Shown in pieces: positions 10,339 to 45,200 of a stretch of 46,360 nt of DNA; the first letter of the stretch is position 1, and every line of letters starts with the position of its first letter. Both the position numbers and the translations under genes were made by a program. This DNA is from Anaerolineae bacterium (GTDB lineage: Bacteria > Chloroflexota > Anaerolineae > Aggregatilineales > Phototrophicaceae). The notes below the pieces were generated by a model that was not told where the DNA came from, searched no databases, and saw nothing but the letters and a program-made list of their open reading frames with translations. The stretch covers positions 1 through 46,360 of the forward strand of contig DAOTXA010000300.1 of the NCBI GenBank assembly GCA_034435595.1, given 5' to 3'.

Positions 10339-10346
10339 TGCTGCGG

Positions 10347-12775: not shown

Positions 12776-12790
12776 ACTGTCTTTTCAATG

Positions 12791-12825
12791 CAAAAGGGTG
12801 TGCACTTAGGGTGCACACCCTTTTG
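12791..12825. terminator. Bidirectional intrinsic terminator between convergent genes
   Basis: Perfect 15 bp stem CAAAAGGGTGTGCAC / GTGCACACCCTTTTG with a 5 nt loop. The A-tract and T-tract lie inside and flank the stem, so it can work on both strands. Confidence 0.8.
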
Positions 12826-12879
12826 GTCGAAGATAAATTTAGCGTAGGTTACCACATCTCAGGCACGTAATTTTCAATG

Positions 12880-15396: not shown

Positions 15397-15534
15397 GCGT
15401 CGTATTGTATCCTTTGCTTGTATCCAATAAATTAAATGTAGACTGCACGTGATTCCTGATGTCAAACTCCAAATCAAAGTGGGACGTTGTGGTTGAGAAT
15501 CTGGATTACGTTTTTCTCCCGCATTTCGTGTCAG

Positions 15535-21270: not shown

Positions 21271-21422
21271 CGCAGTTCCCTCTCCTAAAACTGATTCGGT
21301 AGACGCAACAATAATAGCGAATGTCCTCAAATTCTTGTAATGTTAACAATGGTAGCAATCGTGGCATCAATTCGTAAGACTTGAAAAAGCATTGGCCTCT
21401 GATATTGTAGACAAGCTGGGAG

Positions 21423-28978: not shown

Positions 28979-30079
28979 CTACATATCCATTATCGCCTGG
29001 GTGACTTCTTCGGCTGCCTCAACTTCCTCATCCTGCTTCTTCTGCGAAGCGTCGAGCCGATAGCGTACGCTATAGGACGGATGACCCTGTGGATTGTAAT
29101 AGGTTCGCATGACGATCTCTGCCACAAGACCAATGCTAATCATCTGTACGCCGAGAATTACGAGCAAGATCGCTAGCAAGAGAAGCGGACGCTCAGAGAG
29201 GCTCATATCCAATACGAGACGCTCGTAAGATAGCCATAGACCAACAATTGTACCGAGGAAACCAAAGAAGAAACCCATCGTTCCGAAAATATGCATTGGT
29301 CGGCGTGCATAGTTCAAGAGGAACAACACGGTTGTCAGGTCGATGACGACGCGGAATGTACGTCCAATTCCATACTTGCTGCTGCCATAGCGGCGTGCGC
29401 GATCGTTGACAGGCACCTCTGTGACTTTAACGCCCATTGAACTAGCGACGGCGGGGACGAAGCGGTGCAGTTCACCATACAGTTCAACGCCCTTGGCGAC
29501 CGCGTGGTCGTAGGCTTTTAGGGTACAGCCATAGTCGTGCAGATGAACGCCGGTCGTTGCGGAAATAAGCTTATTCGCAGTTATTGATGGCAGGCGACGG
29601 GTTAAAAACTTTTCTTTGCGGTCGGCTCGCCAGCCGCTTACGATATCGTAACCCTGTTCCCACAGTTCAAGTAACTTGGGGATGTCTCGCGGATCATTCT
29701 GGAGGTCTGCGTCAATCGTGATAACAACTTCGCCACGAGCTGCATCAAACCCGGCACTCATCCCTGCAGTTTGGCCAAAATTGCGCCGAAAACTGACGAT
29801 GTGCCAGCGATTATCGACTTCATGAATCTTGCGTAGGAGCGGAAAACTGCGATCTTTACTGCCATCATCGACAGCCACAATTTCATAGCTTCGCCCGATT
29901 TCAGTTAACGCCTCAGTGAGTTCTTTGTAGAGGCCCTCTAAATTCTCTTCCTCATTATAAATCGGAACAACGACAGAGAGTTGAGGGTTTTCTACTGCCG
30001 CGGCTTCCTGAAGGAGCGACAGATCGAAAAGAGGAGTTCCATCCGATTTCTTTTCGTTGTGCGTGTTGTTTTCTGACAT
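28979..30079 (-). CDS. GT2 polyprenyl-phosphate glycosyltransferase (GtrB/ArnC/DPM1-like) with C-terminal TM helices
   Basis: GT-A core LSVVVPIYNEEENL, VAVDDGSKD, TIDADLQNDP. The C-terminus has two hydrophobic helices (TTVLFLLNYA.., LLLLAILLVILGVQMISIGLVAEIV), the architecture of lipid-carrier sugar synthases. Confidence 0.85.
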   Translation of the reverse strand: MSENNTHNEKKSDGTPLFDLSLLQEAAAVENPQLSVVVPIYNEEENLEGLYKELTEALTEIGRSYEIVAVDDGSKDRSFPLLRKIHEVDNRWHIVSFRRNFGQTAGMSAGFDAARGEVVITIDADLQNDPRDIPKLLELWEQGYDIVSGWRADRKEKFLTRRLPSITANKLISATTGVHLHDYGCTLKAYDHAVAKGVELYGELHRFVPAVASSMGVKVTEVPVNDRARRYGSSKYGIGRTFRVVIDLTTVLFLLNYARRPMHIFGTMGFFFGFLGTIVGLWLSYERLVLDMSLSERPLLLLAILLVILGVQMISIGLVAEIVMRTYYNPQGHPSYSVRYRLDASQKKQDEEVEAAEEVTQAIMDM

Positions 30080-30463
30080 GCGACTGATTATGCCCCCTTA
30101 CGGACTCAATATCGGCGTTTGAAACAATTCGCCTCGCCTCAGACCGTAGTATATACAAGATACTTATTAGTTTGGGTGTAACTGAGTTGGTCTTTTGCGA
30201 TATTTCGCAAAATTTTCATAACTATTGAGAGGCAAAGACTTATGCCTGTGTGTGCAGGAACAGCGTATACTAAATAAAGAATAGACGCAAGCACAAAGAG
30301 AATTGACTCTTTGCCTCGATTGACAGTCCGTTTGTCAAAAGCGAAAAACTTATGAAAAGTGTCAATGTAATAAGATGAATATGATAATGCTGTGCTACGC
30401 TTGAGCCGCTTTACTATAAGCTAAGTGTGTTGGAGTTTTCCAACAGAATAACATTATCCAAAG

Positions 30464-31252
30464 ATGGGTGTTCAAAGGACGATCAAAATGCAAAAAACCG
30501 ACCTCAAAACGAAGAACATCCTCTCTGATGAGAAAAAATCGAAGGCGCAAAAATATCAAGAACTCATCATTGGTAAAACGGGATGGGGGAGCCTGATCAA
30601 ATACGAGTTAATCATGCTGATTTGCAGCACACTACCCGGTGTCTTGGGTTTGTTTCTTCGTAGCAAACTGTATCCGATGTTACTTGGTAGCTGCGGCAAG
30701 GGTGTCGTATTTGGTTCAAATGTCGTGTTGCGTCATCCTCACAAAATTCATGTTGGTGATGACGTGGTAATTGATGACAACTGTCTGCTAGATGCGAAAG
30801 GCGTAAGCAACTCAGGCATCAAACTTGGCAACGGTGTGTTCATCGGTCGAAATTCGATTCTCAGTTGTAAGGATGGAGACATCGTACTCGAAGAGAGCGT
30901 GAATATGGGCTTTAATTGTGAGATTTTCTCGGCAAGCGAAGTTGTCGTGGGGCGTAAGACCATGATTGCCGCATATTGCTACCTGATCGCTGGTAATTAT
31001 GATACAACTGCCGGAATCCCATTTGCTGACCAGGATGGTTTTGGGTCTGGTGTAGGCGTCCACATTGGCGAATACGCCTGGTTAGCTGCCGATGTCAAGG
31101 TGCTTGACGAAGTAACCGTTGGTGAGCATACGGTTGTTGGTGCCGGAGCCGTCGTGAATCGATCATTGCCCCCGAATAGTCTGGCAGCCGGCATCCCTGC
31201 GAAAGTGATCCGTGAACGCCAGTCTACCCACTCTGAAAAGTCCGAAGCCTAG
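30464..31252 (+). CDS. Left-handed beta-helix (hexapeptide repeat) acyl/acetyltransferase
   Basis: Hexapeptide-type repeats (IHVGDDVVIDDNCLL, GIKLGNGVFIGRNSIL, VHIGEYAWLAADVKVLDEVTVGEHTVVGAGAVV). There is an N-terminal hydrophobic segment. The alternative ATG at 30488 has a better RBS (AAGGA). Confidence 0.8.
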   Translation: MGVQRTIKMQKTDLKTKNILSDEKKSKAQKYQELIIGKTGWGSLIKYELIMLICSTLPGVLGLFLRSKLYPMLLGSCGKGVVFGSNVVLRHPHKIHVGDDVVIDDNCLLDAKGVSNSGIKLGNGVFIGRNSILSCKDGDIVLEESVNMGFNCEIFSASEVVVGRKTMIAAYCYLIAGNYDTTAGIPFADQDGFGSGVGVHIGEYAWLAADVKVLDEVTVGEHTVVGAGAVVNRSLPPNSLAAGIPAKVIRERQSTHSEKSEA

Positions 31253-31278
31253 CCTCGCTGAGTTCAGGAGTATTCTGT

Positions 31279-32340
31279 ATGTCTGTCAACGAAACGCAAC
31301 AATCTGCCAAAGAGAAGAATAGACTTCGGCAATTTGCCTTCACCGTAGTAAAAGTCGTGATTTCGGCAGGGCTGATTTGGTTCATCTTGCGAGATACCAG
31401 TGTTGAGGAAGTGTGGAACGCGATCCAGATGGCAAATCCCTGGCTGCTGGCGTTGGCGTTCTCATTGCATTTCATCGGGTTCCTTGTCAGCGCAATTCGT
31501 TGGAAAGGATTGCTTCGCGCTCAGGGTGTAGATGCGACAATCCCGTTCTTGTTCAATTCTTATGTTGTCAGTGCATTTTTCAACAATTTGCTACCTTCCA
31601 CAATAGGTGGTGATGCAGTCCGTGCATATGACTCGTGGCGGCTTGGGCAAAGTAAATCCGATGCAGTCGCAGTCGTGTTTGTGGATCGTTTCCTCGGCAT
31701 TCTGGTGCTGATGGCTTTCGCACTCGTAGCCGTGCTGTTTTCGAATACCATTACGGAAGATGCGCCTTCGCTATATCTCTGGGTTGTTGTTGGATCGGTT
31801 GGTGTCGTTATCATCTCGTGGATTATGTTCATTCCTTCGCCACGGTTGCCACGATTGATTGAGGCTTTACCATTGCCTGGAAAAATCAAGGACAAACTCG
31901 TAACGATTGTGCGTGCATTCCTTTCTTTTCAGGGGAAGAAGCGTGTTCTTGCCGAGGCGATGTTCTGGTCTGTGGCGCTACAAGCCAACGTAGTCTTGCA
32001 TTATTGGCTGATTTCTGAGGCCATGGGGCTAAACGTGCCCTGGTACAATTTTTTCTTGATTGTTCCGCTGGCGACATTCGTCATGATGATCCCGATTTCA
32101 ATCAATGGTTTGGGCCTTCGTGAGACGGTATTCGCCTTTTTCTTCGCGCCTTTCGGCGTCGCAAACTCTGCTGCTGTAGGGTTCTCATGGATTGTGTATG
32201 GCATGGTGGTGCTACTGGGCGTGATCGGCGGAGTCATCTATGCGACACGCCGGGAGACACGCCTCGAAATACCTGCCGAAGCACCGCCCGACACTGCTTC
32301 TATTCGATCTGATGGTGTGGTTAGTGAATCTGTTCATTAG
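31279..32340 (+). CDS. Flippase-like UPF0104 / lysylphosphatidylglycerol-synthase-TM-region family membrane protein
   Basis: Polytopic membrane protein with the family hallmark IRWKGLL.......FFNNLLPSTIGGDAVRAY. An AGGAG RBS is present. Confidence 0.7.
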   Translation: MSVNETQQSAKEKNRLRQFAFTVVKVVISAGLIWFILRDTSVEEVWNAIQMANPWLLALAFSLHFIGFLVSAIRWKGLLRAQGVDATIPFLFNSYVVSAFFNNLLPSTIGGDAVRAYDSWRLGQSKSDAVAVVFVDRFLGILVLMAFALVAVLFSNTITEDAPSLYLWVVVGSVGVVIISWIMFIPSPRLPRLIEALPLPGKIKDKLVTIVRAFLSFQGKKRVLAEAMFWSVALQANVVLHYWLISEAMGLNVPWYNFFLIVPLATFVMMIPISINGLGLRETVFAFFFAPFGVANSAAVGFSWIVYGMVVLLGVIGGVIYATRRETRLEIPAEAPPDTASIRSDGVVSESVH

Positions 32341-32364
32341 GAATTTTGGGAGACAGTAACGATT

Positions 32365-32913
32365 ATGCCTTCACCTATTGCTCATGCTGCCATGGGACTT
32401 GCAATTTACGAAGTAGCTCGGCATCATATGGCTGATAGCGACGAGTCTCAACGCATTGGACCTATCTCAGGGCTGATGGCGGCCACAATTGGATTTTCAC
32501 TTCTGCCAGATGTTGATGTCGTTCCAGCGATATTGACCGGTAACTTTGCCGCATTCCACAATAACTTTACACATAGCTTGTTTTTCGGTTTGCTGATGGC
32601 ACTGTGCTTTGCGGCTACGATGTTCTTCTTGGATCGTAAGAATGTGTGGCGGTGGCTAACAGTGGCACTTGGTTGTTACTGGGTTCATGTGGGCATGGAC
32701 TTTTTGACGCCCGGACGAGGTGTCATGGTTCTATGGCCGTTTATTCCTGAGAGGCTTGAACCATCGTTCTTTGCCTTTTACGGCGTTCATTGGTCTGAGC
32801 CGCTGACAAGCACAAGGCATTTGCTTACACTTGTTACAGAGGGACTTTTTGTTTCACTTGTCGGGGCCAGTTCGATGGCATATCGTCGTATACTTTCAAA
32901 TACTACGACCTGA
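32365..32913 (+). CDS. YdjM-like membrane-bound metal-dependent hydrolase (DUF457-type)
   Basis: The 182 aa protein has 4-5 TM helices, an N-terminal PSPIAHAAMG, LLPDVDV and the His cluster FHNNFTHSLFF. Confidence 0.55.
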   Translation: MPSPIAHAAMGLAIYEVARHHMADSDESQRIGPISGLMAATIGFSLLPDVDVVPAILTGNFAAFHNNFTHSLFFGLLMALCFAATMFFLDRKNVWRWLTVALGCYWVHVGMDFLTPGRGVMVLWPFIPERLEPSFFAFYGVHWSEPLTSTRHLLTLVTEGLFVSLVGASSMAYRRILSNTTT

Positions 32914-32917
32914 CAAA

Positions 32918-33676
32918 ATGCTCTACTTCACCGATGAGGAGGTTATTCCTGTGGTGGCATTCCCTGAAACCGCAGATATTGAAACGTCATCCGACGATTA
33001 CGCGACTCGATTCGCTGGTGACATAGGCAAATGGTTCCTGAAGTTACAGGAAGATGCAACACTTAAAATGCTCAAGCCTTATCCGGGTGCTACGATACTT
33101 GACGTTGGAGGCGGTCACGGACAAACCACAGAAGCTTTGGTGAAGGCCGGATACAAAGTGACTGTGCTGGGTAGCGATGAGAGTTGCAGGTCGCGCATTC
33201 AATCTTTTGTGGATATGGGACAGGTAGACTTTAAAGTCGGTAATGTGATTGATCTGCCTTATGAAGCACGTTCGTTTGACGTTGTGTTAAGCTATCGTTT
33301 AGTCCCGCATGTTGAACGGTGGGAAGAACTCCTCACAGATTTCACTCGCGTTGCTGACAAAGCGGTTATCGTTGATTTCCCTGAAAGCTTGAGCTTTAAT
33401 GCCATCACGCCACTGTTGTTTGGCTTCAAGAAGAAACTTGAAGGGAACACGCGAGAATACACGTTATTCCGCCGTAGTCAGCTGATGGATGTATACGAGC
33501 ACAACGGCTTTCAGTATTCGGCACGTATCCCTGAATTTTTCTTGCCGATGGTATTGCATCGTAAGCTGAAGAATGTGCGCATTTCTAGCTTCATGGAATC
33601 AATCTCCCGCCTGACTGGATTAACCCGATTGTTTGGGTCTCCAGTGATATTGAAGGTAACTCGGAAGGACGGATAG
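32918..33676 (+). CDS. Class I SAM-dependent methyltransferase
   Basis: The start is trimmed to ATG 32918, 4 nt after the upstream stop. Motif I is ILDVGGGHGQTT, post-I is VTVLGSDE and motif II/III is FDVVLSYRLVPHV. Confidence 0.75.
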   Translation: MLYFTDEEVIPVVAFPETADIETSSDDYATRFAGDIGKWFLKLQEDATLKMLKPYPGATILDVGGGHGQTTEALVKAGYKVTVLGSDESCRSRIQSFVDMGQVDFKVGNVIDLPYEARSFDVVLSYRLVPHVERWEELLTDFTRVADKAVIVDFPESLSFNAITPLLFGFKKKLEGNTREYTLFRRSQLMDVYEHNGFQYSARIPEFFLPMVLHRKLKNVRISSFMESISRLTGLTRLFGSPVILKVTRKDG

Positions 33677-33679
33677 CTC

Positions 33680-34888
33680 GTGCGTATTCTCTTTTTGTCT
33701 CCTCAACCACTCTATCAAGATCGTGGTTCCTCGATTGCTAATAAACTGATTATCGAAGTCCTCTCTGAGCGTGGCGAGGAAACAGATGTAATTACGTATG
33801 CCGAAGGCAAGACGGTTGAGTATCCACATATTACGCTGTTGCGAACACCGGACTACAACTTTTTGCGTGGCATTCGTCCCGGTTTCAGTGCAAAAAAGAT
33901 CGTCTGCGACATCTTCATGTTTTTCAAGGCAGTTCGCTTGTTGGTGCGTGGTGAACGGTACGATGTCGTCCATGCTGTCGAGGAATCTGCCTTTATCGCG
34001 TTATTGTTCAAGTGGTTCTTGCGGATTCCGTACATATATGACATGGATTCGTCACTCGCTCAGCAAATGGTAGAGAAGTATCCATCGCTCAAGTTTGCGT
34101 CAACAGCACTCAATTTTTTTGAGGGGGTCGCAATTCGCAATGCGACAGCGGTTATCGTTGTATGTGATGCGTTAGGGGATATTGCGAAAGAACATAATCC
34201 CAAGAAGCTGATTACCTTGCGTGACGTTCCATTGTTAGATGATGATCCTGTGGAGATCACCGAGGATTTGCGGTCTGATCTCGGTATCGACGGTCCCATA
34301 TTGATGTACGTCGGCAATCTTGAGAGTTATCAGGGGATCGATTTGCTGGTTGAAAGCACCGCAAAGGCGACACAGGAAACGGTCACACCATTCCACGTTG
34401 TTGTTGTAGGTGGGGCAGATGCTGATATTGAGAAATATCGCGCAATGTCGGTGGATAAAGGCATTAGTGATCGTATTCATTTCATTGGCCCACGTCCCAT
34501 CGGCGACTTAAAGATGTACCTTTCGCAGGCCGATATTCTGCTATCCCCCCGCACCAAAGGTAACAATACGCCGATGAAGATTTACTCGTACCTTTATAGC
34601 GGAAAGCCGATTGTCGCGACAGATTTGTGGACACATACGCAAGTTTTGACGACAGACGTTTCAGTATTGGCAGACCCTGACACCAATGCATATGCTGGTG
34701 GAATGGTAAAATTGGTAGAGGATGCGGCCTTACGAGACAGACTTGGTGGCGCGGGTAAGCAACTCATTGAAGATCATTACAGCTATGAGGTTTTTCACGA
34801 AACCCTTACCGGGTTGTTGGATTGGTTGAACAGCGAATTCGATTCGTCATCAAAAGGTGTCATCGCTACATCTGCCGGATCATCATAA
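33680..34888 (+). CDS. Glycosyltransferase family 4
   Basis: GTG start with a GGAAGGACGG RBS. The N-terminus is MRILFLSPQPLYQDRGSS and the C-terminal GT-B signature is DILLSPRTKGNNTPMKIYSYLYSGKPIVATD. Confidence 0.85.
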   Translation: MRILFLSPQPLYQDRGSSIANKLIIEVLSERGEETDVITYAEGKTVEYPHITLLRTPDYNFLRGIRPGFSAKKIVCDIFMFFKAVRLLVRGERYDVVHAVEESAFIALLFKWFLRIPYIYDMDSSLAQQMVEKYPSLKFASTALNFFEGVAIRNATAVIVVCDALGDIAKEHNPKKLITLRDVPLLDDDPVEITEDLRSDLGIDGPILMYVGNLESYQGIDLLVESTAKATQETVTPFHVVVVGGADADIEKYRAMSVDKGISDRIHFIGPRPIGDLKMYLSQADILLSPRTKGNNTPMKIYSYLYSGKPIVATDLWTHTQVLTTDVSVLADPDTNAYAGGMVKLVEDAALRDRLGGAGKQLIEDHYSYEVFHETLTGLLDWLNSEFDSSSKGVIATSAGSS

Positions 34889-34915
34889 AACGTCAAGAAA
34901 AGACAGGAGAACGCA

Positions 34916-36571
34916 ATGAAGCGCGATCTTGAACGGATATCCGGCGAGATGTACGATCTTGTTATCATTGGGGCCGGAATTTATGGCGCAACACTGCTGT
35001 GGGAAGCGACCTTGCGCGGGCTGAAAGCCATTGTTGTTGAAAAGGGTGATTTCGGTTCAGGCACATCTGCCAACAGCCTAAAAACCATTCATGGTGGCGT
35101 GCGTTACTTGCAGCACGCCGACATTCAGCGTATGCGCGAGTCAATGCGCGAGCGACGAAACCTGATGCGGATTACTCCGCACCTTGTTCACCCTCTCCCT
35201 GTGCTGATTCCTACCTACGGGCATGGGATGAAAGGGCGGGAGATTATGGCTGCTGCGATGATCGTGAATGATGTTTTGAGCATGGACCGTAATGTGCTGG
35301 ACGATCCACAAAAGCGGATCCCGAATGGGACGACTGTATCTCCTGCCAAAACACTTGACATTGCCCCAGGTATCAAAGAAGAAGGATTGACTGGTGGAGC
35401 AGTCCTGTACGATGCTCAAGTTTATAATTCGGAACGTCACATTCTCGCGTTCATTCGGTCCGCTGTCGAACGCGGATCGGATGCTGTAAATTATGCGCCT
35501 GTTATAGGGTTTCTTCGTGATGGAGATACAGTCTTCGGTGTTAAGTGCGAAGATCAGATTTCTGGTAGCGAAGTTGAGATTCGCGGGAAGTATGTAATCA
35601 ATACTGCCGGTCCTTGGATCAGCCATGTATTGGATATGGACGGTGGGGCAAATACGCCAGATAAGCTTAAACTTTCAATGGCGATGAATATCATCGTTCC
35701 CAATCTATTTGACACGTATGCGGTGGGAATTTCATCCACTCGAGTGTATCGCGATACCGATTCGCTGCTTGATCGTGGTAGCCGATTACTGTTCTTTTCG
35801 CCATGGCGCGGTAAAACAATGGTTGGTACCGAGTATGAAGCGTATGAAGGCCATCCTGACGAGTTTCGACTTACCGAACAGAAAATCGTTAATTTCGTAG
35901 AAGAGGTCAATCACGCATACCCTGCGGCTAATATCACACGCGATGACGTGAGTTTCGTCCATGCTGGTTTGTTACCGATGGATGGTTTGGATGAAACGAC
36001 AGGAGATGTTCGACTCGCCAAGCACTACGAAATCCGTGACCATCGTGAACAGGGTGTACAAGGGATTGCGTCTGTTGTTGGTGTGAAATACACCACGGCT
36101 CGCGATGTAGCCGAGCGTGTTATGAACTGGGTTTTTGACCGCATTTGGGAAAAAACTGCGCCTCGTTCCACATCGGCAATTACACCTTTATGGGGTGGCA
36201 ATATAACGCGATTTAATGATTTTCTGAATCGAGAGATTCGCCAGCAACCATGTGGCCTGGGCGAGGAGGCAGTACGTTGCCTCGTATACAACTATGGTTC
36301 TGCATATTCCAATGTGACCCGTTATTTGGATGGCCCTGTTGACGAGGGGGATCGACTTGCGCTGGCTGCTGCCGAAACACGTCATGCTGTACACGACGAG
36401 ATGGCGCAACATCTTGAGGACGTGATCCTGAGACGTACCGAATTGGGTTCTGCTGGATACCCCGGTGATGATGTACTTGCCGAATGCGCGAGAACAATGG
36501 CCGAAGAACTTAACTGGGATGATGTCCGCAAGCAGCAGGAAATCGACAAGACGAATGCCCGCTTCTACTAA
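34916..36571 (+). CDS. GlpD-like FAD-dependent oxidoreductase (DAO family plus C-terminal helical domain)
   Basis: YDLVIIGAGIYGATLLWEATLRGLKAIVVEKGDFGSGTSANSLKTIHGGVRYLQ closely mirrors the glycerol-3-phosphate dehydrogenase N-terminus. The 551 aa length includes a GlpD-type C-terminal domain. Confidence 0.8.
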   Translation: MKRDLERISGEMYDLVIIGAGIYGATLLWEATLRGLKAIVVEKGDFGSGTSANSLKTIHGGVRYLQHADIQRMRESMRERRNLMRITPHLVHPLPVLIPTYGHGMKGREIMAAAMIVNDVLSMDRNVLDDPQKRIPNGTTVSPAKTLDIAPGIKEEGLTGGAVLYDAQVYNSERHILAFIRSAVERGSDAVNYAPVIGFLRDGDTVFGVKCEDQISGSEVEIRGKYVINTAGPWISHVLDMDGGANTPDKLKLSMAMNIIVPNLFDTYAVGISSTRVYRDTDSLLDRGSRLLFFSPWRGKTMVGTEYEAYEGHPDEFRLTEQKIVNFVEEVNHAYPAANITRDDVSFVHAGLLPMDGLDETTGDVRLAKHYEIRDHREQGVQGIASVVGVKYTTARDVAERVMNWVFDRIWEKTAPRSTSAITPLWGGNITRFNDFLNREIRQQPCGLGEEAVRCLVYNYGSAYSNVTRYLDGPVDEGDRLALAAAETRHAVHDEMAQHLEDVILRRTELGSAGYPGDDVLAECARTMAEELNWDDVRKQQEIDKTNARFY

Positions 36572-36590
36572 TTACGATAGGAAAGATTAA

Positions 36591-37424
36591 ATGACGGTAG
36601 AGCAAGCAATCTCCAGTGAACAGGAACAAGACGAACGGATTAGTTTTCCGTTAAAGCTATTTGGAAAGTCTGTACTCAAGCAGCGCAAGTATAAGGAACT
36701 CAGTGCAATGCTTGGCCCAGTTGGTGACCGGACATGTATTGACATCGGTTCCGATAACGGTGTGATTAGCTATCTGTTTCGCCAGCAGGGTGGTACATGG
36801 AAGAGTGCTGATCTCGATGATCATGCTGTGCATGCTATTCGGTCAATGGTGGGAAGTGATGTTTATCAAATTGATGGCGGAAAAACTCCCTTTGCCGATA
36901 ATGAGTTCGACGCGGTAGTGATTGTGGATTTTCTGGAGCACATCTCGGATGATAAAGGTTTTATGCAAGAGATGAAGCGAATCCTAAAACCAGGCGGCAC
37001 CGTGATTATGAACGTGCCGCACCTCAAAAATAGCCTGTTAAGGCGATTCCGCCTCCTTATCGGTCAGACGGATGAGAAACATGGTCATTTGCGCCCCGGT
37101 TATACGCCTGCGATGTTGAAGGACCTTGCTGGTGCCGACTTCACCATTCAACGTCATCATACTTACTCTAAATTTTTCTCCGAGTTCATCGACACTATGA
37201 TTGTGTTTGCTGTCTCGGTGCTGAAATCGCTGAAAGGTGAAAAGGCTGACTCGCAAAAGGGTTTAGTGGTCACAGGTGATGATCTGAGCGCGAATAAGTC
37301 GATGTTCAAGATTTATTCGTTGATTTTCCCAGTAGTTAAAGTGTTCTCCTTGCTGGATAATCTGCTGTTTTTCCGCAAAGGGTACATGTTGATTGCCAGC
37401 GCAACTAACAACAAACAGGAGTGA
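36591..37424 (+). CDS. Class I SAM-dependent methyltransferase (Methyltransf_11-like)
   Basis: Motif I is CIDIGSDNGVIS, followed by FDAVVIVDFLEHISDD and ILKPGGTVIMNVP. A hydrophobic C-terminal tail is present. Confidence 0.8.
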   Translation: MTVEQAISSEQEQDERISFPLKLFGKSVLKQRKYKELSAMLGPVGDRTCIDIGSDNGVISYLFRQQGGTWKSADLDDHAVHAIRSMVGSDVYQIDGGKTPFADNEFDAVVIVDFLEHISDDKGFMQEMKRILKPGGTVIMNVPHLKNSLLRRFRLLIGQTDEKHGHLRPGYTPAMLKDLAGADFTIQRHHTYSKFFSEFIDTMIVFAVSVLKSLKGEKADSQKGLVVTGDDLSANKSMFKIYSLIFPVVKVFSLLDNLLFFRKGYMLIASATNNKQE

Positions 37425-37432
37425 GCGCAGCG

Positions 37433-38428
37433 ATGCACGACAAGAATGACAAGATTCTCGTCACGGGCGGAACCGGATATACTGGCAGCCATCTGGTGAG
37501 ACGGCTGGTCAACGATGGCTACGATGTACGTACATTTGTGAGGAATCCTGATAAATTTCCGCTGCTCAAAGATATCAACGTTGAAATCGCTACTGGCGAT
37601 CTGCGGAATAAGGACGATGTCAACAAGGCAATGGATGGTGTAAATGTTGTATATCATATCGCCGCTTTGTTTCGTGCAGAGAATGTCTCACGTGAGGACA
37701 TGTTCGATATTAACGCGGGTGGTGCGGAAAATATGCTTCAAGCTGCTGAAAAGCAAGGGGTGAAGCGTTTTGTACATTGCAGTACGATCGGTGTACATGG
37801 CGATGTCAAGAATCCACCTGCAGATGAGGAATCCCCATACAATCCTGGTGATTATTATCAGGAATCGAAGCTTGAAGGTGAACTAATCGCCCAGCGTTTC
37901 ATGAAGGCAGGCAACATCCCAATTAGCATCTATCGTCCTGCTGGAATCTATGGGCCAGAAGAGAAGCGTTTTCTGAAGCTCATTAAATCGATCCGCAATC
38001 GTACATTTGTGATGATCGGTTCCGGCGAAATTCTATATCATATGGTCTACATTGACGATCTGGTAGATGGCATCATTCTATGCGGTACGCAGGATGAGGC
38101 AGTTGGTGAAATCTTTATCCTCGCAGGGGATGATAACTTGACGTTGAACGATCTCGTACACTTGATTGCCGACATTCAGAATGTGCCGGCACCGAAATTG
38201 AGGGTCCCGTTTGCGCCGGTCTATGCTGCCGGATATGCTGCAGAGGTTTTGTTCAAACCGTTTGGTGTCCAACCTCCGATTTATCGTCGGCGTGTCGATT
38301 TCTTCCGCAAAACGCGCAGCTTCGACATTAGCAAGGCAAAGGATGTGCTCGGCTACAAGCCAAAAGTCTCGTTACGCGAGGGGTTGCAGAATACGATTGC
38401 CTGGTATGAGACGGAAGGGCTTTTCTAA
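37433..38428 (+). CDS. NAD-dependent epimerase/dehydratase (extended SDR)
   Basis: ILVTGGTGYTGSHLV Rossmann motif and catalytic YxxxK in YYQESK. ATG 37433 follows AGGAG. The track ORF starts at a GTG (37421) that overlaps the upstream stop. Confidence 0.9.
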   Translation: MHDKNDKILVTGGTGYTGSHLVRRLVNDGYDVRTFVRNPDKFPLLKDINVEIATGDLRNKDDVNKAMDGVNVVYHIAALFRAENVSREDMFDINAGGAENMLQAAEKQGVKRFVHCSTIGVHGDVKNPPADEESPYNPGDYYQESKLEGELIAQRFMKAGNIPISIYRPAGIYGPEEKRFLKLIKSIRNRTFVMIGSGEILYHMVYIDDLVDGIILCGTQDEAVGEIFILAGDDNLTLNDLVHLIADIQNVPAPKLRVPFAPVYAAGYAAEVLFKPFGVQPPIYRRRVDFFRKTRSFDISKAKDVLGYKPKVSLREGLQNTIAWYETEGLF

Positions 38429-38457
38429 ACAAGAACAGACATCCTAATTAGTAACAA

Positions 38458-38485
38458 CGGGGACAATTGATATTGTCCTCGTTTT
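38458..38485 (+). terminator. Intrinsic terminator closing the glycoconjugate operon
   Basis: Stem CGGGGACAAT / ATTGTCCTCG (7 Watson-Crick pairs, then a G-U and two more pairs), loop TGAT, followed by TTTT. Confidence 0.7.
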
Positions 38486-38583: not shown

Positions 38584-40281
38584 GTGTTTTCAATGAAATC
38601 TAGACTACAGCGGCTTCTGCCGGATTCATCGCATAACTCGCAAATGCAAAGGGCTTTGATCAAGTTTCCAGAAATCAGCATCATGTGGCCAGATGGTCGT
38701 CCTGAAGCAAAGCAGATCGTTCGCAAGGAAACTGGCTGGGATATTGATTTGCGGCTTGACGATTTGGTGCAATCCATGACACTCGACCGGCGATATAGTG
38801 CATATATTCATCAAATCTTGCTATCGTTGACGACAGATACCGGGGTTATTGAATGGCGACAGGCAATTCTGGAAGACTTTCTCTCCAATCCTACATTGAC
38901 CGATATGTTTTCCGAGTTGTTGCCGCGAATGCAGGGCCTGGGACAGCGGTCTACTGCCTTACTCGGGCGACGTGAGCGGGGTCTTTTGCTTGAGGCTTCA
39001 GATCGGTTGGCAGAGCTTGATCTTTATACGGAAACAGTTGTTTCTATGCTTTCTGCACTTAAGCAGGCACATCTGAGTTCTCCTGGTTTGATCCAATTGT
39101 TGCGTGAACTGGAAATGCTGCAAAATAGCGAGAGTTTTCGAAATCTGCAAGATCAGTTACCTGAGATGCGTGCACCGTTCAGCAAGATTGCTAGCTTAAC
39201 AGTTGGCATCAATCTTGATGCGCAGTTGCGACCGCGGTCTGCAGTATTGATGGCAGTGAATGATGTCGAAATTGGTGAACCTGCCTCATTCTTGGAAAGA
39301 CTGGTTGGGATACGTGATTCTGAGGTCGATGAATCTGGTATTGCGCCGATGCATCATGTTCCGGGTGAGAAAAATCAGCGAATTTTGTCGCCTTTGTTTC
39401 AAGACCTCAATCGACTGATGAATCAGATTGCGCAACCTGTTACGCGTGAGTTGCAGCGCTACACGTGGCTGTCTAGCGAGCCACTTATTGAATTAGAATT
39501 TGAGTTGGCTTTTTTTGTCGGGGCAGCGCGAATGGTTGAGCGTCTGCGAGATAGAGGGGTTTCGTTTTGTCGTCCTGAAATTCGTCCGTCTGCCGCTCGT
39601 GAGATGGTGATAGAGGACCTGACAAACATTGCGCTCGCGTTGTCAGAAGAAAAGCATTTGCCGGTTACAAGTGATGTGAGGTTTGATGAGTCTGGTCGCA
39701 TAGGCATTTTGACTGGGCCAAATAGTGGTGGTAAGACGACATACTTGCAGGCTGTTGGCCTTACTCAAGCGATGTTTCAAGCCGGGCTAAATGTACCTGC
39801 AAAGTTGGCTCTGATGAGTCCAGTACGCACTATCTTAACTCATTTTCCGGCGCTGGAAACAAGAAGAGACGGGCGCTTGGCTGAAGAGGCGAGTCGGCTA
39901 CGTCGTGTATTTACCTTTGCGGATGCACATTCACTCATCTTGTTAAACGAGACGTTTTCCAGTACCTCAGCAAGTGAGGCGATCTATCTGGCGCGTGATA
40001 TTTTGTCGGCGATGCGCATAATTGGTTTGCGTGCACTTTATGCTACTCATTTTAGCGAACTTGTCGAGCACATTGATCAGATTGAGGAGAATGTTTCTGG
40101 TAGCAGCCGCATCTTTAGCCTTGTTGCCGGAATTGATACTGATGAAAAAGGAGAATCCGTTGCTACTTATAGGGTAGTTCGGGGAATGCCGCTGGGGCGA
40201 AGCTATGCTCGTCAGATTGCACTGCGCTACGGAATTAGTCTGGATCAGATTATGTCGAATCAAGTATATAATAATTCGTAG
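38584..40281 (+). CDS. MutS-related ABC-type ATPase (domain V only; no mismatch-binding or Smr domain recognisable)
   Basis: Walker A is ILTGPNSGGKTTYLQAVGL and Walker B region is SLILLNETFSSTS. The N-terminus resembles short MutS paralogs (SIMWPD....DIDLRLDDLVQ..). The start is uncertain among GTG 38584, ATG 38593 and ATG 38644. Confidence 0.7.
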   Translation: MFSMKSRLQRLLPDSSHNSQMQRALIKFPEISIMWPDGRPEAKQIVRKETGWDIDLRLDDLVQSMTLDRRYSAYIHQILLSLTTDTGVIEWRQAILEDFLSNPTLTDMFSELLPRMQGLGQRSTALLGRRERGLLLEASDRLAELDLYTETVVSMLSALKQAHLSSPGLIQLLRELEMLQNSESFRNLQDQLPEMRAPFSKIASLTVGINLDAQLRPRSAVLMAVNDVEIGEPASFLERLVGIRDSEVDESGIAPMHHVPGEKNQRILSPLFQDLNRLMNQIAQPVTRELQRYTWLSSEPLIELEFELAFFVGAARMVERLRDRGVSFCRPEIRPSAAREMVIEDLTNIALALSEEKHLPVTSDVRFDESGRIGILTGPNSGGKTTYLQAVGLTQAMFQAGLNVPAKLALMSPVRTILTHFPALETRRDGRLAEEASRLRRVFTFADAHSLILLNETFSSTSASEAIYLARDILSAMRIIGLRALYATHFSELVEHIDQIEENVSGSSRIFSLVAGIDTDEKGESVATYRVVRGMPLGRSYARQIALRYGISLDQIMSNQVYNNS

Positions 40282-40469: not shown

Positions 40470-42113
40470 GTGGCTGGCCTTGACGTTGAAACCCGCGACA
40501 TGATTCTAGATACATTGAGCAGCTATGCGGAAGATCGGCTCACAGTAGACTATCTTCTAGAACTTGATCATAAGGATGAGTTCCCGACGGATGTTCTTCG
40601 TGAACTCTATGATCCTGAAACGTTTGGTCTGCACCTGTTGTTTATTCCCGAAGATTATGGCGGGTTAGATGGCGGCGCGTATGATATTTATCGTGTTTCC
40701 GAGATTATGGCGGGTATCGATCTCGGTATCGGCACTGGTGTTTTGGCTACTTTCCTTGGGCTTGACCCCATTACCGTCGGCGCGACAGATGAACAGAAAG
40801 AATATTGGATGTCTCGCGTGGCTGAAGAGGGTATGTTAATTGCCTATGGTGCCACCGAACCGCAGGCGGGTAGTGATCTTGCATCGTTGTCTACAAAAGC
40901 GGTACCTGTCGAAGAAGACGGTAAGATCGTCGGCTATAAGATTACAGGTCGTAAGCAATGGATCAGTAACGGTGGGGTTGCCGACTTATACACAATTCTT
41001 GCGAATGCTCCCGGCGGTCCATCATGGTTTATCGTGGAACGGGAAAAAGTTGATGGATTTACAACTGGTAAACCGGAAGATAAACATGGTATTCGTGCAA
41101 GCAATACCTCTGCACTTTTTCTTGAAGATGTTTACGTTCCTGTAGATCAACTTGTTGGCTTGAAAGAAGGAAACGGGCTAGCAGAAGCCCAGGCTGTTTT
41201 CGGGTATACCCGCTTGATGGTTGGTACATTCGGATTGGGGGCTGGATGGGAGGCGTTGCGCCGCGCTATTCGCTATTCGCAGGAGCGCATTCAAGCAGGT
41301 GCGCCACTTAGCGAAAAACAGGGCTATACTCACAAGTTGATTGTACCTAATGCTGTTCGGCTTGAGGCCTGTCGCTCGTATATCGAATGGGTCGCTGAAC
41401 GTCTTGATTTTGGTGAGGATAACCTTGCAACAGAGGGTGCGGTTGCTAAATATATGGCGACCGAAGGCGGTAACAAAGCGGCTGAAGACGCGATACAGGC
41501 GTTGGGAGGCTATGGTTATACGAAAGAGTATATGGTCGAGAAGATTAAACGTGATGTTCGCATTACAACCATTTATGAAGGTACATCAGAAATCATGGAA
41601 TGGACGATTGCGCGTGATCGTTGGCAAAGTCATTTAAAGTCGCGTGGTGCTTTTTATCGCGATTGGGCATCTCGACTTGATGCAATTCACTCAAAGCAAC
41701 CTGCTAATGGCGCAGATATTGCCGCTTTGGGATTGCGTGCCCTCGCAGTCGTACTTGACCGTTGCCGCGAGGATCGTCTCACGCGACAGCAGCACATTCT
41801 ATTCCGCATAGGTGAGTTAGTTGCTTTTGCAGAATTAGCGGCGACTTATGCCGAACGTGTGGTTGACAAAGCGACGCAGGCGTCACCGTTCAGTTTGGAA
41901 ACGCAGCAGGCGATGTGCCGCGTATTTGCCCGCGAAGCTGCGCTGAAGGTTGCAGTTGATGGCTTAAGCTGGACCAATGGGGCCGGACAAACAGATCCCA
42001 ATCTGGCGGACTCTTTGAATCTACCAGCGATCTACGCAGCTCAAAAGGGTGGCATTGAGGACATGGACACGGTCGCGGTAGCATTGGTATCTGCATATCC
42101 GGCTGCGCAATAG
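40470..42113 (+). CDS. Acyl-CoA dehydrogenase, long form with a roughly 155 aa C-terminal extension
   Basis: GTG start after AAGGGGGG. The ACAD core shows [28 protein letters not shown] and catalytic-Glu region [11 protein letters not shown]. Additional helical sequence follows the core. Confidence 0.9.
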
Positions 42114-42236: not shown

Positions 42237-45200
42237 ATGGATTCTTCGGCAGATCGTGCGATCGCCATTGTAGGCGTTGGTGCCATTCTCCCTGATGCTC
42301 TGACTGCGCCGGATTTCTGGCAGAATATTATCAATAAGCGATATAGCATTTCTGATGTCCCTGACGGTCGATGGAATGTCTCTGACTACTTTAATCCTGA
42401 TATGACCGTTTCCGACAAGACGTATAGCAAGATTGGCGGTTGGGTAAAAGGCTTCGAATTTGACTGGCGGCGGTTTCGCATTCCACCCAAGGTTGCTGCC
42501 GCGATGGACCAGGGGCAACAATGGGCGCTTACAATTGCTGCTGAGGCCTTAGACGATTATGGCTACCCTGCACGTGCGCTTAATACTGAACGCACTGCTG
42601 TGATTCTAGGTACGGCAATGGGTGGCGAACTGCACTATGAAACGGCTCTTCGTGTCTCATTCCCGGAATTTGCTCGTTTGCTCAAGGAAACACCAGAATT
42701 TGCTGCGCTTTCTGTTGAAGCACGTGCTGCGCTGATTGATCATTGGCACGCAGAGGTCACGCGAGCCTTTCCACCTGTCACCGAAGACTCGATGCCGGGT
42801 GAACTGCCGAATGTGATGTCAGGCCGTGTGGCGAATGTGCTAAATCTTCGCGGCCCGAATTTTATCACTGATGCGGCGTGTGCATCAAGTTTTGCAGCGC
42901 TGAATTCTGCGGTGGAGATGCTCACCGAACATCACGTAGACGCTGTCTTGACGGGTGGTGTTGATCGAAATATGGGTGTCACTACCTTCGTGAAGTTCTG
43001 CAAGATTGGTGCGTTAAGCGCCACAGGTAGCCGTCCGTTTGGCGAAGGTGCCGATGGCTTTGTGATGGGAGAAGGATCGGGTGCGTTTTTGCTCAAACGC
43101 TTGTCCGATGCAGAGCGTGCTGGAGATAAGATTTATGCTGTTATTCGAGGTGTAGGTGGCTCAAGTGATGGTAAAGGCAAAGGTATTACTGCCCCCAATC
43201 CAGTAGGGCAGCAATTATCGATTCGTCGCGCCTGGGAAAACGCGATGTTGGAACCAGCGACAGCAACATTGATCGAAGCTCATGGTACCAGTACGCGTGT
43301 TGGCGATGTCGTAGAAGTTGAAAGCCTATCCACTGTGTTCGGTAACGCACAGCGCAATAGTATTGCGCTTGGGTCTGCGAAGAGCAATATTGGACATTTG
43401 AAAGCGGGGGCAGGCGCAGCCGGTTTGATGAAGGCAACTATGGCATTACATCACAAGACGCTACCTCCTACCCTCAATGCTGAACGTCCGAATCCCAATA
43501 TTGATTTCGAACAATCGCCATTTTACCTGAATACAGAGCCTCGCGAATGGGTGAGATCAAATGGAACGCCCCGAAGGGCCGGCGTCAGTGCCTACGGTTT
43601 CGGTGGGACCAACTTTCACATCGTTTTGGAAGAATATGTTCCTGGTTCATTGACCAGCAAAGTCAGGTCTTTTCCAACGGCAGTAGCTAACCGTGAGGCG
43701 GAGTCTGGTCCATCTGTTACTCGCTCCATCATGCCAGTTCGTGGTTTGCTGGCGATCGGCGCAAATACGCCGCAGGCGCTGAAGAATAAGTTGGACGACG
43801 TAAATGCTCGTGTTGAAGCTGGCTGGACCCCGCCTGCTGCCTTACCAGGTGAAGCTGACATCAAGGCGCGAGAGCGTATCGTTATCGATTTTGGAGATCA
43901 CGCCGAGCTTGTTGATCGTGTCCATAAAGCACAAAAAGCAATGGGTTTCGACACGCTTCAGGCCTGGCGTGCCCTAGAGGCACAGGGTATCTTCCGTGGG
44001 AGTGGTACCCGCTCCGGCAAGACCGCCTTTTTGTTCCCAGGGCAGGGTAGTCAATATCTGGGCATGGGTCGGCAGCTTGCAGCGGTTTCTCCGATTGTGC
44101 AGCAAGTATTTGATGATGCTGATGCCGTGATGGAGCCGATTCTTGGTAGACCGCTAACCGATTATATCTTCGTTGACGATCCAGATGATCCCGTCGCACA
44201 AATGACGCTGATGCAGACTGAAATTACTCAGCCAGCGATGTTGACACTGGATATTGCCATCTATCGACTTCTCCAATCTTACGGCTTTAGACCAGATTTA
44301 GTGATGGGCCACTCTCTGGGCGAGTACGCGGCATTGATTGTTTCTGGCATTATGTCGTTCAAAGATGCTCTAGAAGCAGCGGCAGCACGTGGTAACGAGA
44401 TGGCCCGTGTTAGTGTCGAAGACAATGGCTGGATGGCGGCAGTACTTGCACCATTAGATGCCGTGCAAGAGACACTAAAAGAAGTTGACGGTTATGTGGT
44501 TCCAGCTAATATCAATAGCCGCAGTCAGTGTGTAATTGGCGGAGCCAGCAAAGCCGTGGAGCAGGCGATTGCCCTTTTTGAAGAAAAAGACTATCGTGCG
44601 ATCCAATTGCCGGTCAGTCATGCATTCCACACGGAAATCGTCGCTCCCGCCAGTGCGCCGTTGCGCAATGTTTTAGATCGCCTAGATATTCGCCCGCCGA
44701 CCATTCCTTTGGTTGCCAATGTAACCGGTGATTTATATCCCACAGACGTTACAGCAATTAAAGATTTGCTACAAAAACAAATTGCTTCGCCAGTGCAATG
44801 GGTGAAAGGATTGGAAACACTCTTCCACGAAGGAGTGCGTATGTTCGTGGAGGTCGGTCCAAAACGAGCACTGCGTGGATTTGTCGCTGATGTGTTCAAG
44901 GGTAACGATGAAGTGTTAGCCCTTATGACCAATCATCCTAAAACTGGAGAATTGTCGGCATTTAATCACGCAATTGCGGGTTTATATGCCCATGGATACT
45001 ATGCCGCAGTCGAGAAAAAACCGAGTGTAACCGCATCAATTGAGCTTCCGCAACCGAAGTTAAATCCAGAAAATGAGGCCACAATGACGGCTCCAGCCGA
45101 ACCTCCCACCAATGCTTCGCTCGAAGCGCTGACGCAGATGTTGACGCAGGCTCTTGGCCGTACTGTAGTACAGCAAGGGGCCGCGACTAATGTCTATGAT

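Follow-up and report, generated by a model that had tools for sequence, protein, structure and literature searches.

What does a bacterium use a protein resembling glycerol-3-phosphate (G3P) dehydrogenase (GlpD) for, when its gene is embedded among genes for glycosyltransferases, methyltransferases, and membrane proteins? The question is raised by positions 28979 to 38428 of contig DAOTXA010000300.1 of an Anaerolineae bacterium (assembly GCA_034435595.1; genome 92% complete), the entire 46,360 nucleotides (nt) of which were analyzed and are called the window below. The open reading frame (ORF) listing and the Pfam and NCBIfam scans gave nine genes in this region, i.e., one minus-strand gene for a family 2 glycosyltransferase (GT2) and eight plus-strand genes, one of which encodes the GlpD-like flavoenzyme. 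The locus possibly tailors a lipid-linked sugar at the membrane by flavin adenine dinucleotide (FAD)-dependent oxidation, reduction by a short-chain dehydrogenase/reductase (SDR), methylation, acetylation, and flipping, a chemistry that we deduce from the encoded families and place somewhat short of an even chance. Considerably more tentative is the specific proposal that the flavoenzyme belongs to a clade re-tooled from G3P to a phosphodiester-linked sugar (an arginine moved from position 317 to position 63, and His233 lost), which together with the SDR would form a second, independently evolved epimerase of the DprE1/DprE2 type acting on lipid-carrier sugars, and which, with a family 4 glycosyltransferase (GT4) and methyltransferases, would equip the surface glycans of bacteria including Chloroflexota and filamentous cyanobacteria with a methylated rare sugar.

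A GlpD-like flavoenzyme with changed conserved residues

The flavoenzyme possesses the DAO (PF01266; 129.8 bits) and DAO_C (PF16901; 62.3 bits) domains in the order typical of its family, and its AlphaFold2 model (predicted local distance difference test [pLDDT], 89) is predicted to adopt the GlpD/GlpO fold, matching 2RGH, 3DA1, and 2QCU at template modeling (TM) scores of 0.76 to 0.84. Its scores fall below every NCBIfam cutoff for G3P dehydrogenases, i.e., 218.5 against 360 for NF008899, 210 against 352 for NF009906, and 211.5 against 840 for GlpO type 1. For a maximum likelihood tree, 78 near-full-length sequences were used after duplicate loci had been dropped, the canonical set being formed by the GlpD proteins of E. 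coli, Paraburkholderia, and Verrucomicrobiales and by the canonical paralogues of relatives. The flavoenzyme falls into a clade of 69 rows apart from canonical GlpD, with a support value of 99 in the Shimodaira-Hasegawa-like approximate likelihood ratio test (SH-aLRT), and glycan-type neighbors were found for 47 of these 69 rows. A first-pass annotation of the stretch, made from the sequence alone, had called the protein a GlpD-like FAD oxidoreductase; while the DAO and DAO_C domains bear this out, the protein is more than a divergent GlpD, as it belongs to a distinct clade in which family-conserved residues are changed. These changes emerged from a comparison of nine canonical with 65 clade sequences (L060, L076, L086, and L097 left out), numbered as in E. 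coli GlpD throughout:

Position 46: Ser or Thr in 9/9 canonical sequences, Leu in 56/65 clade sequences
Position 63: Leu in 9/9 canonical sequences, Arg in 57/65 clade sequences
Position 108: Tyr in 9/9 canonical sequences, Asn in 52/65 clade sequences
Position 233: His in 9/9 canonical sequences, Asn in 60/65 clade sequences
Position 317: Arg in 9/9 canonical sequences, Leu in 44/65 or Val in 17/65 clade sequences
Position 358: Tyr or Phe in 9/9 canonical sequences, Ala in the clade

The flavoenzyme of the window carries L46, R63, N108, N233, L317, and A358, and the clade signature was found at most positions in the named cyanobacterial and Chloroflexota proteins checked (n = 9). Common to the clade and to canonical GlpD are H50 and R54 (the His and Arg of the HGGxRY motif), T270, K354, and R359, and the FAD-binding glycines are kept as well. 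The general-base arginine of GlpD is presumably Arg317, and His233 presumably lines the active site of the E. coli enzyme. In true G3P dehydrogenases, the G3P-binding residues are conserved and an arginine has been proposed as the general base, according to a preprint (bioRxiv 10.1101/2024.02.29.582781). Since His51 is described as the catalytic base of Mycoplasma pneumoniae GlpO in PMC10726252, the HGG histidine of the flavoenzyme may plausibly act likewise, provided that the two residues are equivalent.

A GlpD with the canonical signature is encoded elsewhere in the same genome, on contig C613, and shares 63 to 71% identity with the canonical GlpD proteins of relatives and 30% with the flavoenzyme. 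Databases hold at least 120 cluster representatives at 49% or more identity to the flavoenzyme, which their sources name glycerol-3-phosphate dehydrogenase or oxidase; many clade proteins are thus probably misnamed, with consequences for models of cyanobacterial and Chloroflexota metabolism built on such annotations. Searches with the flavoenzyme yielded a single canonical match at 32% among plasmids, generic GlpD-named clusters in the ESM Atlas, and, when genome contigs were searched with this one protein, two canonical GlpD loci.

Two fusions were encountered. Protein P0121 (1,230 residues) joins a clade-type GlpD-like part (residues 1 to ~490) to a GT4 (567 to 890) and a fatty acid hydroxylase domain (1045 to 1179), and thus links the flavoenzyme to GT4 and to a membrane lipid enzyme at the level of a single Logan record. 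The other comes from a sister group (L076, L086, and L097) that keeps the canonical GlpD residues: at positions 9953 to 12640 of L076, GlpD is fused to a DAGK_cat/YegS_C lipid-kinase domain (895 residues), beside a resistance-nodulation-division (RND) efflux pump and an FAD-linked oxidase.

Gene content and recurrence of the cassette

The features of the locus are as follows, the two methyltransferases being designated MT1 and MT2:

28979 to 30079, minus strand: ArnC/GtrB-like GT2 with polyprenyl-phosphate sugar synthase architecture, 366 residues (Glycos_transf_2)
30080 to 30463, no strand: divergent intergenic (promoter) region, 384 nt, with a palindrome of 8-bp arms at 30193 to 30212
30464 to 31252, plus strand: membrane-anchored left-handed β-helix (LbH; hexapeptide) O-acetyltransferase, WcaF-like, 262 residues (Hexapep)
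31279 to 32340, plus strand: UPF0104/flippase-like polytopic membrane protein, 353 residues (LPG_synthase_TM, TIGR00374)
32365 to 32913, plus strand: YdjM-family membrane protein, putative metal-dependent hydrolase, 182 residues (PF04307)
32918 to 33676 (ORF open from 32831), plus strand: S-adenosylmethionine (SAM) methyltransferase MT1 (Methyltransf_11)
33680 to 34888, plus strand: GT4 glycosyltransferase of the GT-B fold, 402 residues (Glycos_transf_1 and Glyco_transf_4)
34916 to 36571, plus strand: GlpD-derived FAD flavoenzyme of 551 residues, altered at family-conserved positions (DAO and DAO_C)
36591 to 37424, plus strand: SAM methyltransferase MT2, 277 residues (Methyltransf_11)
37421 to 38428, plus strand: extended SDR, HpnA-like/3β-hydroxysteroid dehydrogenase-like, 335 residues (Epimerase, 3Beta_HSD)
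38456 to 38483, plus strand: terminator-like hairpin closing the operon, 12-pair stem (5 of the pairs G-C) around a loop of 4 nt

The first-pass annotation had counted ten genes and a nine-gene operon, although its own list named eight operon functions; the count is corrected here to nine and eight, whereas the genes themselves, their strands, their domain assignments, and the arrangement of a divergent GT2 facing one tight co-directional block were all recovered. Its spacing of 3 to 27 nt with one overlap likewise holds if MT1 starts at the ATG at 32918: the gaps are then 26, 24, 4, 3, 27, and 19 nt, and MT2 and the SDR overlap by 4 nt. This start appears likely, as judged by its position 4 nt past the YdjM stop codon and by the MT1 orthologues, which align only from residue 29 onward of the longer ORF. 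Less clear-cut is the terminator claimed at 38458. A 12-pair hairpin is present there and has the longest stem of the 10 hairpins found in the region, but the region has no more terminator-like sites (10) than shuffled sequences do (11.0 ± 3.3). The spacer between GT2 and the operon contains short ORFs of 20 to 67 codons only, and promoter-like sites at 30359 to 30388 (plus strand) and 30442 to 30413 (minus strand), which are consensus matches only. Its palindrome, with perfect 8-bp arms and a 4-nt loop, was flagged as terminator-like by the scan and could be an operator. No Rfam family matched anywhere in the window.

With the GlpD-like protein as the anchor, the neighborhood check proposed by the first-pass annotation was carried out in related genomes and in metagenomes. 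Close orthologues (42 to 54% identity) were found in 4 of 40 relatives, being absent from the two genomes of the same genus (95% and 97% complete), in 8 of another 250 genomes from the order (7 of 94 genera positive, the own genome counted), and in 1 of 400 genomes sampled across the phylum; given so few positive genomes at each level, the distribution of the cassette is patchy. Its gene orders in these genomes, with GlpDl denoting the GlpD-like gene, are:

G039 and G464: MT1-GT4-GlpDl-MT2-SDR-UPF0104
G622: the divergent layout of the window, with a GT2 orthologue (58% identity) co-oriented with a PMT_2 gene of the GT-C glycosyltransferase class and facing MT1-GT4-GlpDl-MT2-SDR
G295: GT4-GlpDl-MT2-SDR
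G017: GT4, PIG-L, GT4-GlpDl-MT2, with no adjacent SDR
G577 (locus L113): GT4-AsnB-MT-GlpDl-SDR-hydrolase-LbH (67%)-UPF0104 (58%)
G471 and G599: GlpDl-SDR-MT

In G577, the inserted hydrolase between the SDR and the LbH-UPF0104 pair is an α/β-hydrolase (12368 to 13423). When metagenomes were scanned with 31 aligned orthologues, 599 stretches matched; 555 of these proved to be relatives, and the 80 best were retained. Among 85 loci with a GlpD-like match (canonical L017 and L018 left out), 47 have a relative of the SDR, GT4, or a methyltransferase within 6 kb, and 34, mostly short contigs, lack any relative of the cluster genes. In the 18 loci flanked by 3 kb or more on each side, a relative within 6 kb was found for the SDR in 13, for GT4 in 13, and for a methyltransferase in 10 of them, with at least one of the three present in 16. 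The accessory genes are rarer in the same loci (UPF0104 in 6, LbH in 5, GT2 in 3, and YdjM in 1), and none of 12 canonical glpD loci with long flanks, which served as a control, has any cluster relative within 6 kb. The SDR gene lies within ~1.3 kb of the GlpD-like gene in all five further genome loci, and the gene directly downstream of the latter is MT2-like in 14, MT1-like in 6, and an SDR gene in 6 of the 50 loci with at least 900 nt of downstream sequence. The counts from the flanked loci and the control therefore define the conserved unit as flavoenzyme, SDR, methyltransferase, and GT4, with LbH, UPF0104, YdjM, and GT2 as variable accessories.

Co-conservation, on which the earlier account of the cluster hinged, thus holds for the core MT-GT4-GlpDl-MT-SDR in relatives and metagenomes (SDR, GT4, or methyltransferase in 16/18 loci, against 0/12 in the control), so that the outcome named there as refuting, i.e., genes not conserved together, did not arise; it does not extend to the full nine-gene set. 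The cassette recurs across Chloroflexota and metagenomes and, as indicated by protein similarity, in filamentous cyanobacteria. At L066, a second, shorter DAO-only paralogue directly follows the SDR gene (14310 to 15792).

MT1 (Methyltransf_11, 6.8e-12) has orthologues of 55 to 62% identity at the same position in G039, G622, and G464. MT2 (Methyltransf_11, 1.5e-15) has orthologues of 57 to 64% identity directly downstream of the GlpD-like gene and no solved relative by sequence; its model (pLDDT 82.5) is nearest to generic small-molecule and sugar methyltransferases (TleD, RebM, MitM, and AtmM; TM 0.5 to 0.6). For GT4, whose orthologues (51 to 57%) immediately precede the GlpD-like gene in G017, G039, G295, G622, and G464, the nearest solved sequences are 3C4Q/3C48 (1.4e-11) and 6KIH (~3e-7), and the MshA model matches at 2.2e-10. 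We take 3C4Q/3C48 to be MshA and 6KIH to be sucrose-phosphate synthase, both with soluble phosphorylated acceptors. The SDR (Epimerase, 5.6e-45; 3Beta_HSD, 1e-30) is nearest to HpnA (188.9 bits against a cutoff of 367.65), OleD, and SdmB-type models, all below cutoff, and its best solved relative, 3WJ7, is a "putative oxidoreductase"; the Ser-Tyr-Lys triad (Ser121, Tyr146, Lys150) and the glycine-rich NAD motif do not vary among the 19 cassette SDRs aligned.

Transmembrane helices were predicted from Kyte-Doolittle windows, which gave helices for GT2, LbH, UPF0104, and YdjM, a borderline C-terminal hydrophobic segment for MT2, and none for MT1, GT4, the flavoenzyme, and the SDR. GT2 (Glycos_transf_2, PF00535, 108.4 bits, 4.9e-31) conforms to the ArnC/GtrB architecture in that its predicted GT-A domain precedes two C-terminal hydrophobic helices (residues 264 to 282 and 301 to 319). 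Its best NCBIfam match is ArnC (207 bits against a cutoff of 529; residues 33 to 340 on model positions 7 to 310 of 316), with PgfS at 163.2 against 500, so no named enzyme fixes its sugar, the equivalog cutoffs of both models lying above its scores. GT2 orthologues near the cassette share 58% (G622), 63% (G039), and 55% (L095) identity. The LbH protein (Hexapep, 2.2e-13; WcaF-like, 80 bits against 192) has a single N-terminal hydrophobic helix (residues 47 to 65), and its relatives directly adjoin a UPF0104 gene in five other loci (L079, L113, L078, L114, and L087). By its scores for LPG_synthase_TM (PF03706; 172.6 bits against 33.4) and for the TIGR00374 flippase-like domain (95.9 against 43.2), the UPF0104 protein, with at least seven predicted hydrophobic segments, qualifies as a member of the UPF0104/flippase-like family and hence as a putative flippase; HpnL matched at 46 bits, below cutoff. 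The YdjM protein matches PF04307 at 69.8 bits, and YdjM genes are present in cassette loci L095 and L042 as well.

The setting of the cassette in long loci was read from Pfam scans. Export-type polysaccharide genes surround it in L032 (Wza, Wzc, priming transferase, and Wzx), L078 (Wzc), and L016 (priming transferase), and such loci often contain AsnB-type amidotransferases and carbamoyltransferases; amidotransferases of this type lie inside the cassette in L016, L027, L032, L042, L079, L087, and L113. In L116, Wzy_C, a sulfotransferase, and PMT_2 are found around the cassette. A second kind of setting combines an ArnC-like GT2 with GT-C genes, as in G039 (PMT_2 and two GT87), G622 (PMT_2 adjoining the GT2 orthologue), and L095 (YfhO and PMT_2). 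Several short contigs show no glycan context.

On the contig itself, the locus is preceded by genes for pyruvate:ferredoxin oxidoreductase (PFOR) and a dihydroorotate dehydrogenase (DHOD)-like protein. The named nearest relatives of the latter are mostly metagenome-assembled genomes (MAGs) of Anaerolineae, Aggregatilineales, or Chloroflexota (68 to 70% identity), besides two cyanobacterial entries and one unclassified "bacterium" MAG, and their similarity supports the assignment to Chloroflexota. The PFOR-DHOD pair is kept in G001, G002, and G017, with GT2 and the operon both absent beside it; since the downstream MutS-like gene lies on other contigs in these three genomes, flank synteny shows the absence of GT2 and operon only for the position beside PFOR-DHOD. 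A GlpD-like protein 83% identical to the flavoenzyme (P0003) and a DHOD-like protein of 85% identity (P0124) are each recorded with 14,493 nt as the length of the longest contig, a pattern that would fit a close relative with the same arrangement.

Downstream of the locus, a MutS-domain-V ATPase (38584 to 40281) and an acyl-CoA dehydrogenase (40470 to 42113) precede a large polyketide synthase (PKS)-type protein (42237 to 46358, plus strand) that is cut off by the end of the contig. It contains a ketosynthase (KS) domain, an acyltransferase domain, and, around residue 1240, another KS-like stretch, so a locus for a lipid or polyketide could adjoin the sugar operon on this side. Other genes on the contig include further envelope-related ones (1553 to 3514, 4758 to 9082, 9148 to 11339, and 18871 to 21330), among them one for a LytR-CpsA-Psr protein, two convergent GT4 genes immediately preceded by a two-component system with an extracytoplasmic function (ECF) sigma/anti-sigma pair, and a gene for an 819-residue GHL5 glycoside-hydrolase-like protein. 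Outside the window, PMT_2 was matched 34 times in the same genome, 27 times at scores above the Pfam cutoff; for a genome of 5.2 Mb, so many transferases dependent on lipid-linked sugars are unusual, and four of the matches are on contig C89.

A possible pathway and its alternatives

In the pathway that we favor, GT4 would place a sugar on a membrane-bound acceptor, probably one linked to polyprenyl (di)phosphate, and the flavoenzyme would oxidize a secondary hydroxyl next to the phosphodiester, e.g., at C2 of a lipid-phospho-sugar, to a ketone, with the electrons passing to FAD and perhaps on to quinone. The SDR would then reduce the ketone with opposite stereochemistry, the net result being an epimerization by the logic of DprE1/DprE2. 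MT1 and MT2 would methylate the sugar, the membrane-anchored LbH protein would O-acetylate it, and the adjacent UPF0104 protein would flip the product outward. The divergent GT2 would make a polyprenyl-phosphate sugar donor, which one of the many unlinked GT-C transferases of the genome may use on a cell-surface glycan. GlpD acts on a secondary alcohol next to a carbon bearing a phosphate ester, and the C2 hydroxyl of a sugar 1-phosphate diester would present the same local geometry. The loss of Arg317 and His233 fits a phosphodiester, which takes up more space than the monoester G3P and has one charge less. For nucleotide sugars, a single SDR with bound NAD performs both steps, and no separate flavin oxidase is needed. 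Epimerization of sugars while they are attached to the lipid carrier, either through DprE1/DprE2 or through an SDR, has precedent (PMC11127046).

Several observations weigh against this pathway. Substrate, product, and activity are deduced from families and context, and the changed residues are only presumed to line the substrate pocket. Pfam scans of the 46-kb window revealed no GT-C transferase (PMT_2, GT87, or YfhO), priming transferase, Wzx, or Wzy, so that the pathway is incomplete at the locus. The tie of GT2 to the cassette is loose, as it lies within 6 kb in only 3 of the 18 flanked loci; the cassette of G017 has no adjacent SDR; and in L033, a protein with the clade signature lies beside menaquinone genes, with neither glycan genes nor any cluster-gene relative nearby. 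The metagenome loci were found by motifs derived from the clade and therefore sample this clade, not all GlpD diversity. Finally, the presumed identity of the nearest solved relatives of GT4, together with the PIG-L deacetylase of G017, fits a soluble product. The view of the first-pass annotation that the locus decorates a lipid-linked sugar or glycolipid accordingly survives in part: the mix of membrane proteins fits it, while the product is putative and the GT-C genes of G622 and G039 have no counterpart here.

The same membrane proteins could serve a free membrane glycolipid, such as a glycosyl-diacylglycerol, a phosphoglycolipid, or another polar lipid, in place of a carrier-linked intermediate. 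GT4 would then glycosylate the lipid, whose head group would be remodeled by the flavoenzyme and the SDR; decoration would fall to the methyltransferases and LbH, and transfer to the outer leaflet to UPF0104. The GT4 family does include lipid glycosyltransferases, UPF0104 is the domain family of the flippase part of MprF, which acts on a phospholipid, and the SDR is nearest to models of hopanoid- and sterol-associated SDRs; the gaps in the window listed above would also be expected for such a product, and the fusion of GlpD-like, GT4, and fatty-acid-hydroxylase domains in P0121 points the same way. That fusion is a single record, however, and the lipid-kinase fusion of the sister clade (L076), at first sight a further argument for a lipid, says little about the flavoenzyme clade, since this sister keeps the canonical GlpD residues. 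The occurrence of the cassette in the middle of operons with Wzx, Wzc, or a priming transferase (L032, L078, and L016) or beside GT-C genes points instead to carrier-linked glycans, and we regard a free glycolipid as unlikely.

Alternatively, the keto product might serve as a handle for a modification other than epimerization, i.e., C-methylation beside the ketone by either methyltransferase, followed by SDR reduction to a branched-chain sugar or, in the variants with AsnB, amination or amidation. The flavoenzyme, SDR, and methyltransferase genes are the most constant trio, a methyltransferase gene is the commonest immediate downstream neighbor of the GlpD-like gene, many variants carry AsnB-type amidotransferases in the cassette, and TleD, the nearest fold to MT2, is a C-methyltransferase. 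However, the Foldseek matches of MT2 are generic and include the sugar O-methyltransferases RebM and AtmM, the sequence does not tell O- from C-methylation here, and the variant in the window has neither AsnB nor an aminotransferase. On balance, we consider such a use of the ketone quite unlikely.

More doubtful still is a soluble cytoplasmic product, for instance a methylated glycosyl-polyol phosphate, a compatible solute, or a polymethylated oligosaccharide of the mycobacterial methylglucose lipopolysaccharide (MGLP) or methylmannose polysaccharide (MMP) type, with the membrane genes unrelated to it. The presumed MshA and sucrose-phosphate synthase relatives of GT4 have soluble phosphorylated acceptors, the PIG-L deacetylase gene beside GT4 in G017 echoes the logic of MshA/MshB, four core proteins (GT4, GlpD-like, MT1, and SDR) lack predicted transmembrane helices, and two methyltransferases with a GT4 and an LbH protein presumably resemble the content of polymethylated polysaccharide clusters. 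Against this stand the weakness of the MshA and sucrose-phosphate synthase matches (E values of ~1e-11 and 3e-7), the tight translational arrangement of the operon with its three membrane proteins LbH, UPF0104, and YdjM, and the embedding of the cassette in export-type polysaccharide and GT-C loci elsewhere. That the flavoenzyme is an ordinary sn-glycerol-3-phosphate dehydrogenase, supplying dihydroxyacetone phosphate (DHAP) or respiratory electrons or balancing glycerol phosphate for a glycan that contains it, and that its clustering reflects no special chemistry, is very improbable in spite of its annotation in the sources, its complete DAO and DAO_C domains, its GlpD/GlpO fold, and the retained HGGxRY motif, K354, and R359, since it scores below all G3P dehydrogenase cutoffs (218.5 vs 360), does not group with the canonical clade, has lost His233 and Arg317 (both kept by 9/9 canonical sequences and by the sister clade with the lipid-kinase fusion), has a canonical counterpart elsewhere in the genome, has neighbors seen at 0/12 canonical glpD loci, and is accompanied by neither glpK nor glpF in the Pfam scans of the window.

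Comparison with known systems

In the open-access literature searched, no published description or characterized match of the cassette was found, and the earlier statement that the locus corresponds to no named pathway was borne out by membership tests as well. The pathway for 4-amino-4-deoxy-L-arabinose (L-Ara4N; Arn) was rejected, the locus having no aminotransferase, formyltransferase domain, deformylase, or ArnT; a Gtr-type three-component system was rejected for want of a GT-C encoded with GT2 in the 46-kb window; and an O-antigen (Wzx/Wzy) locus was rejected, there being no priming phosphoglycosyl transferase, Wzx, Wzy, or chain-length/export proteins in the window. A hopanoid assignment failed on the HpnA (TIGR03466) cutoff and on the lack of hopanoid genes in the window. 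We rate the locus as one of a known kind, namely, lipid-carrier glycan tailoring with an oxidase-reductase pair.

With the three-component systems GtrA/GtrB/GtrV and ArnC/ArnEF/ArnT and the polyprenyl-phosphoribose system of Citrobacter, the locus shares a GT2 of the ArnC/GtrB type, a candidate flippase, and the proposed modification of the sugar while it is lipid-linked, and in G622 and G039 the likeness extends to GT-C genes beside the GT2 orthologue. Unlike these systems, the window has no GT-C, its flippase candidate is of the UPF0104 type and not of the GtrA or small multidrug resistance (SMR) type, and an additional cassette of GT4, flavoenzyme, SDR, and methyltransferases is present, with no Arn aminotransferase or formyltransferase. 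As regards MprF, the pairing of a UPF0104 protein with an acyltransferase mirrors an arrangement in which a molecule is modified and then flipped; however, an aminoacyl-phosphatidylglycerol synthase domain is missing here (37 bits for MprF against a cutoff of 600), and the partner is a separate LbH acetyltransferase. HpnA is the best-scoring named model for the SDR and HpnL is among those for UPF0104, but both scores are below cutoff and the window has no squalene-hopene cyclase or other hopanoid gene. Both HpnA and HpnL are themselves functionally uncharacterized, HpnL according to a preprint (bioRxiv 10.1101/2025.07.29.667474), and the open-access literature searched gave no characterized function match for UPF0104/HpnL. 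The recurrent pairing of a membrane-anchored LbH protein with UPF0104 hints at a function of the flippase-like family, HpnL included.

The flavoenzyme shares with GlpD and GlpO (2QCU, 2RGH, and 3DA1) its fold and domains, the FAD glycines, the His and Arg of HGGxRY, Thr270, Lys354, and Arg359. It differs from them in its separate clade, in the exchanges His233 to Asn, Arg317 to Leu/Val, Ser46 to Leu, and Tyr108 to Asn, in the arginine gained at position 63, in scores below the cutoffs, and in a context of glycan genes in place of glpK and glpF.

The closest parallel to the proposed chemistry is DprE1/DprE2 of the mycobacterial arabinan pathway. DprE1 has the FAD_binding_4 fold of the vanillyl-alcohol oxidase (VAO) family, whereas the oxidase here is a GlpD derivative with DAO and DAO_C, so that the likeness is one of proposed mechanism only. 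The SDR here is extended and HpnA-like, and the donor would come from GT2 and not from a prenyl-phosphoribose synthase dependent on phosphoribosyl pyrophosphate (PRPP), the activity here being predicted. To our knowledge, only few enzyme pairs that remodel lipid-carrier sugars have been described. If the proposal is correct, the flavoenzyme and SDR would be a second pair of this kind, and the little-known envelopes of filamentous Chloroflexota would be expected to contain a methylated sugar not yet described. In DprE1/DprE2 and its homologues for O-antigen pentofuranoses, as described in PMC11127046, a flavin oxidase generates the keto group on a lipid-phospho-sugar, reduction to the epimer is left to a distinct SDR that uses NAD(P)H, and the pair acts upstream of a flippase and GT-C transferases, the same order as that proposed here.

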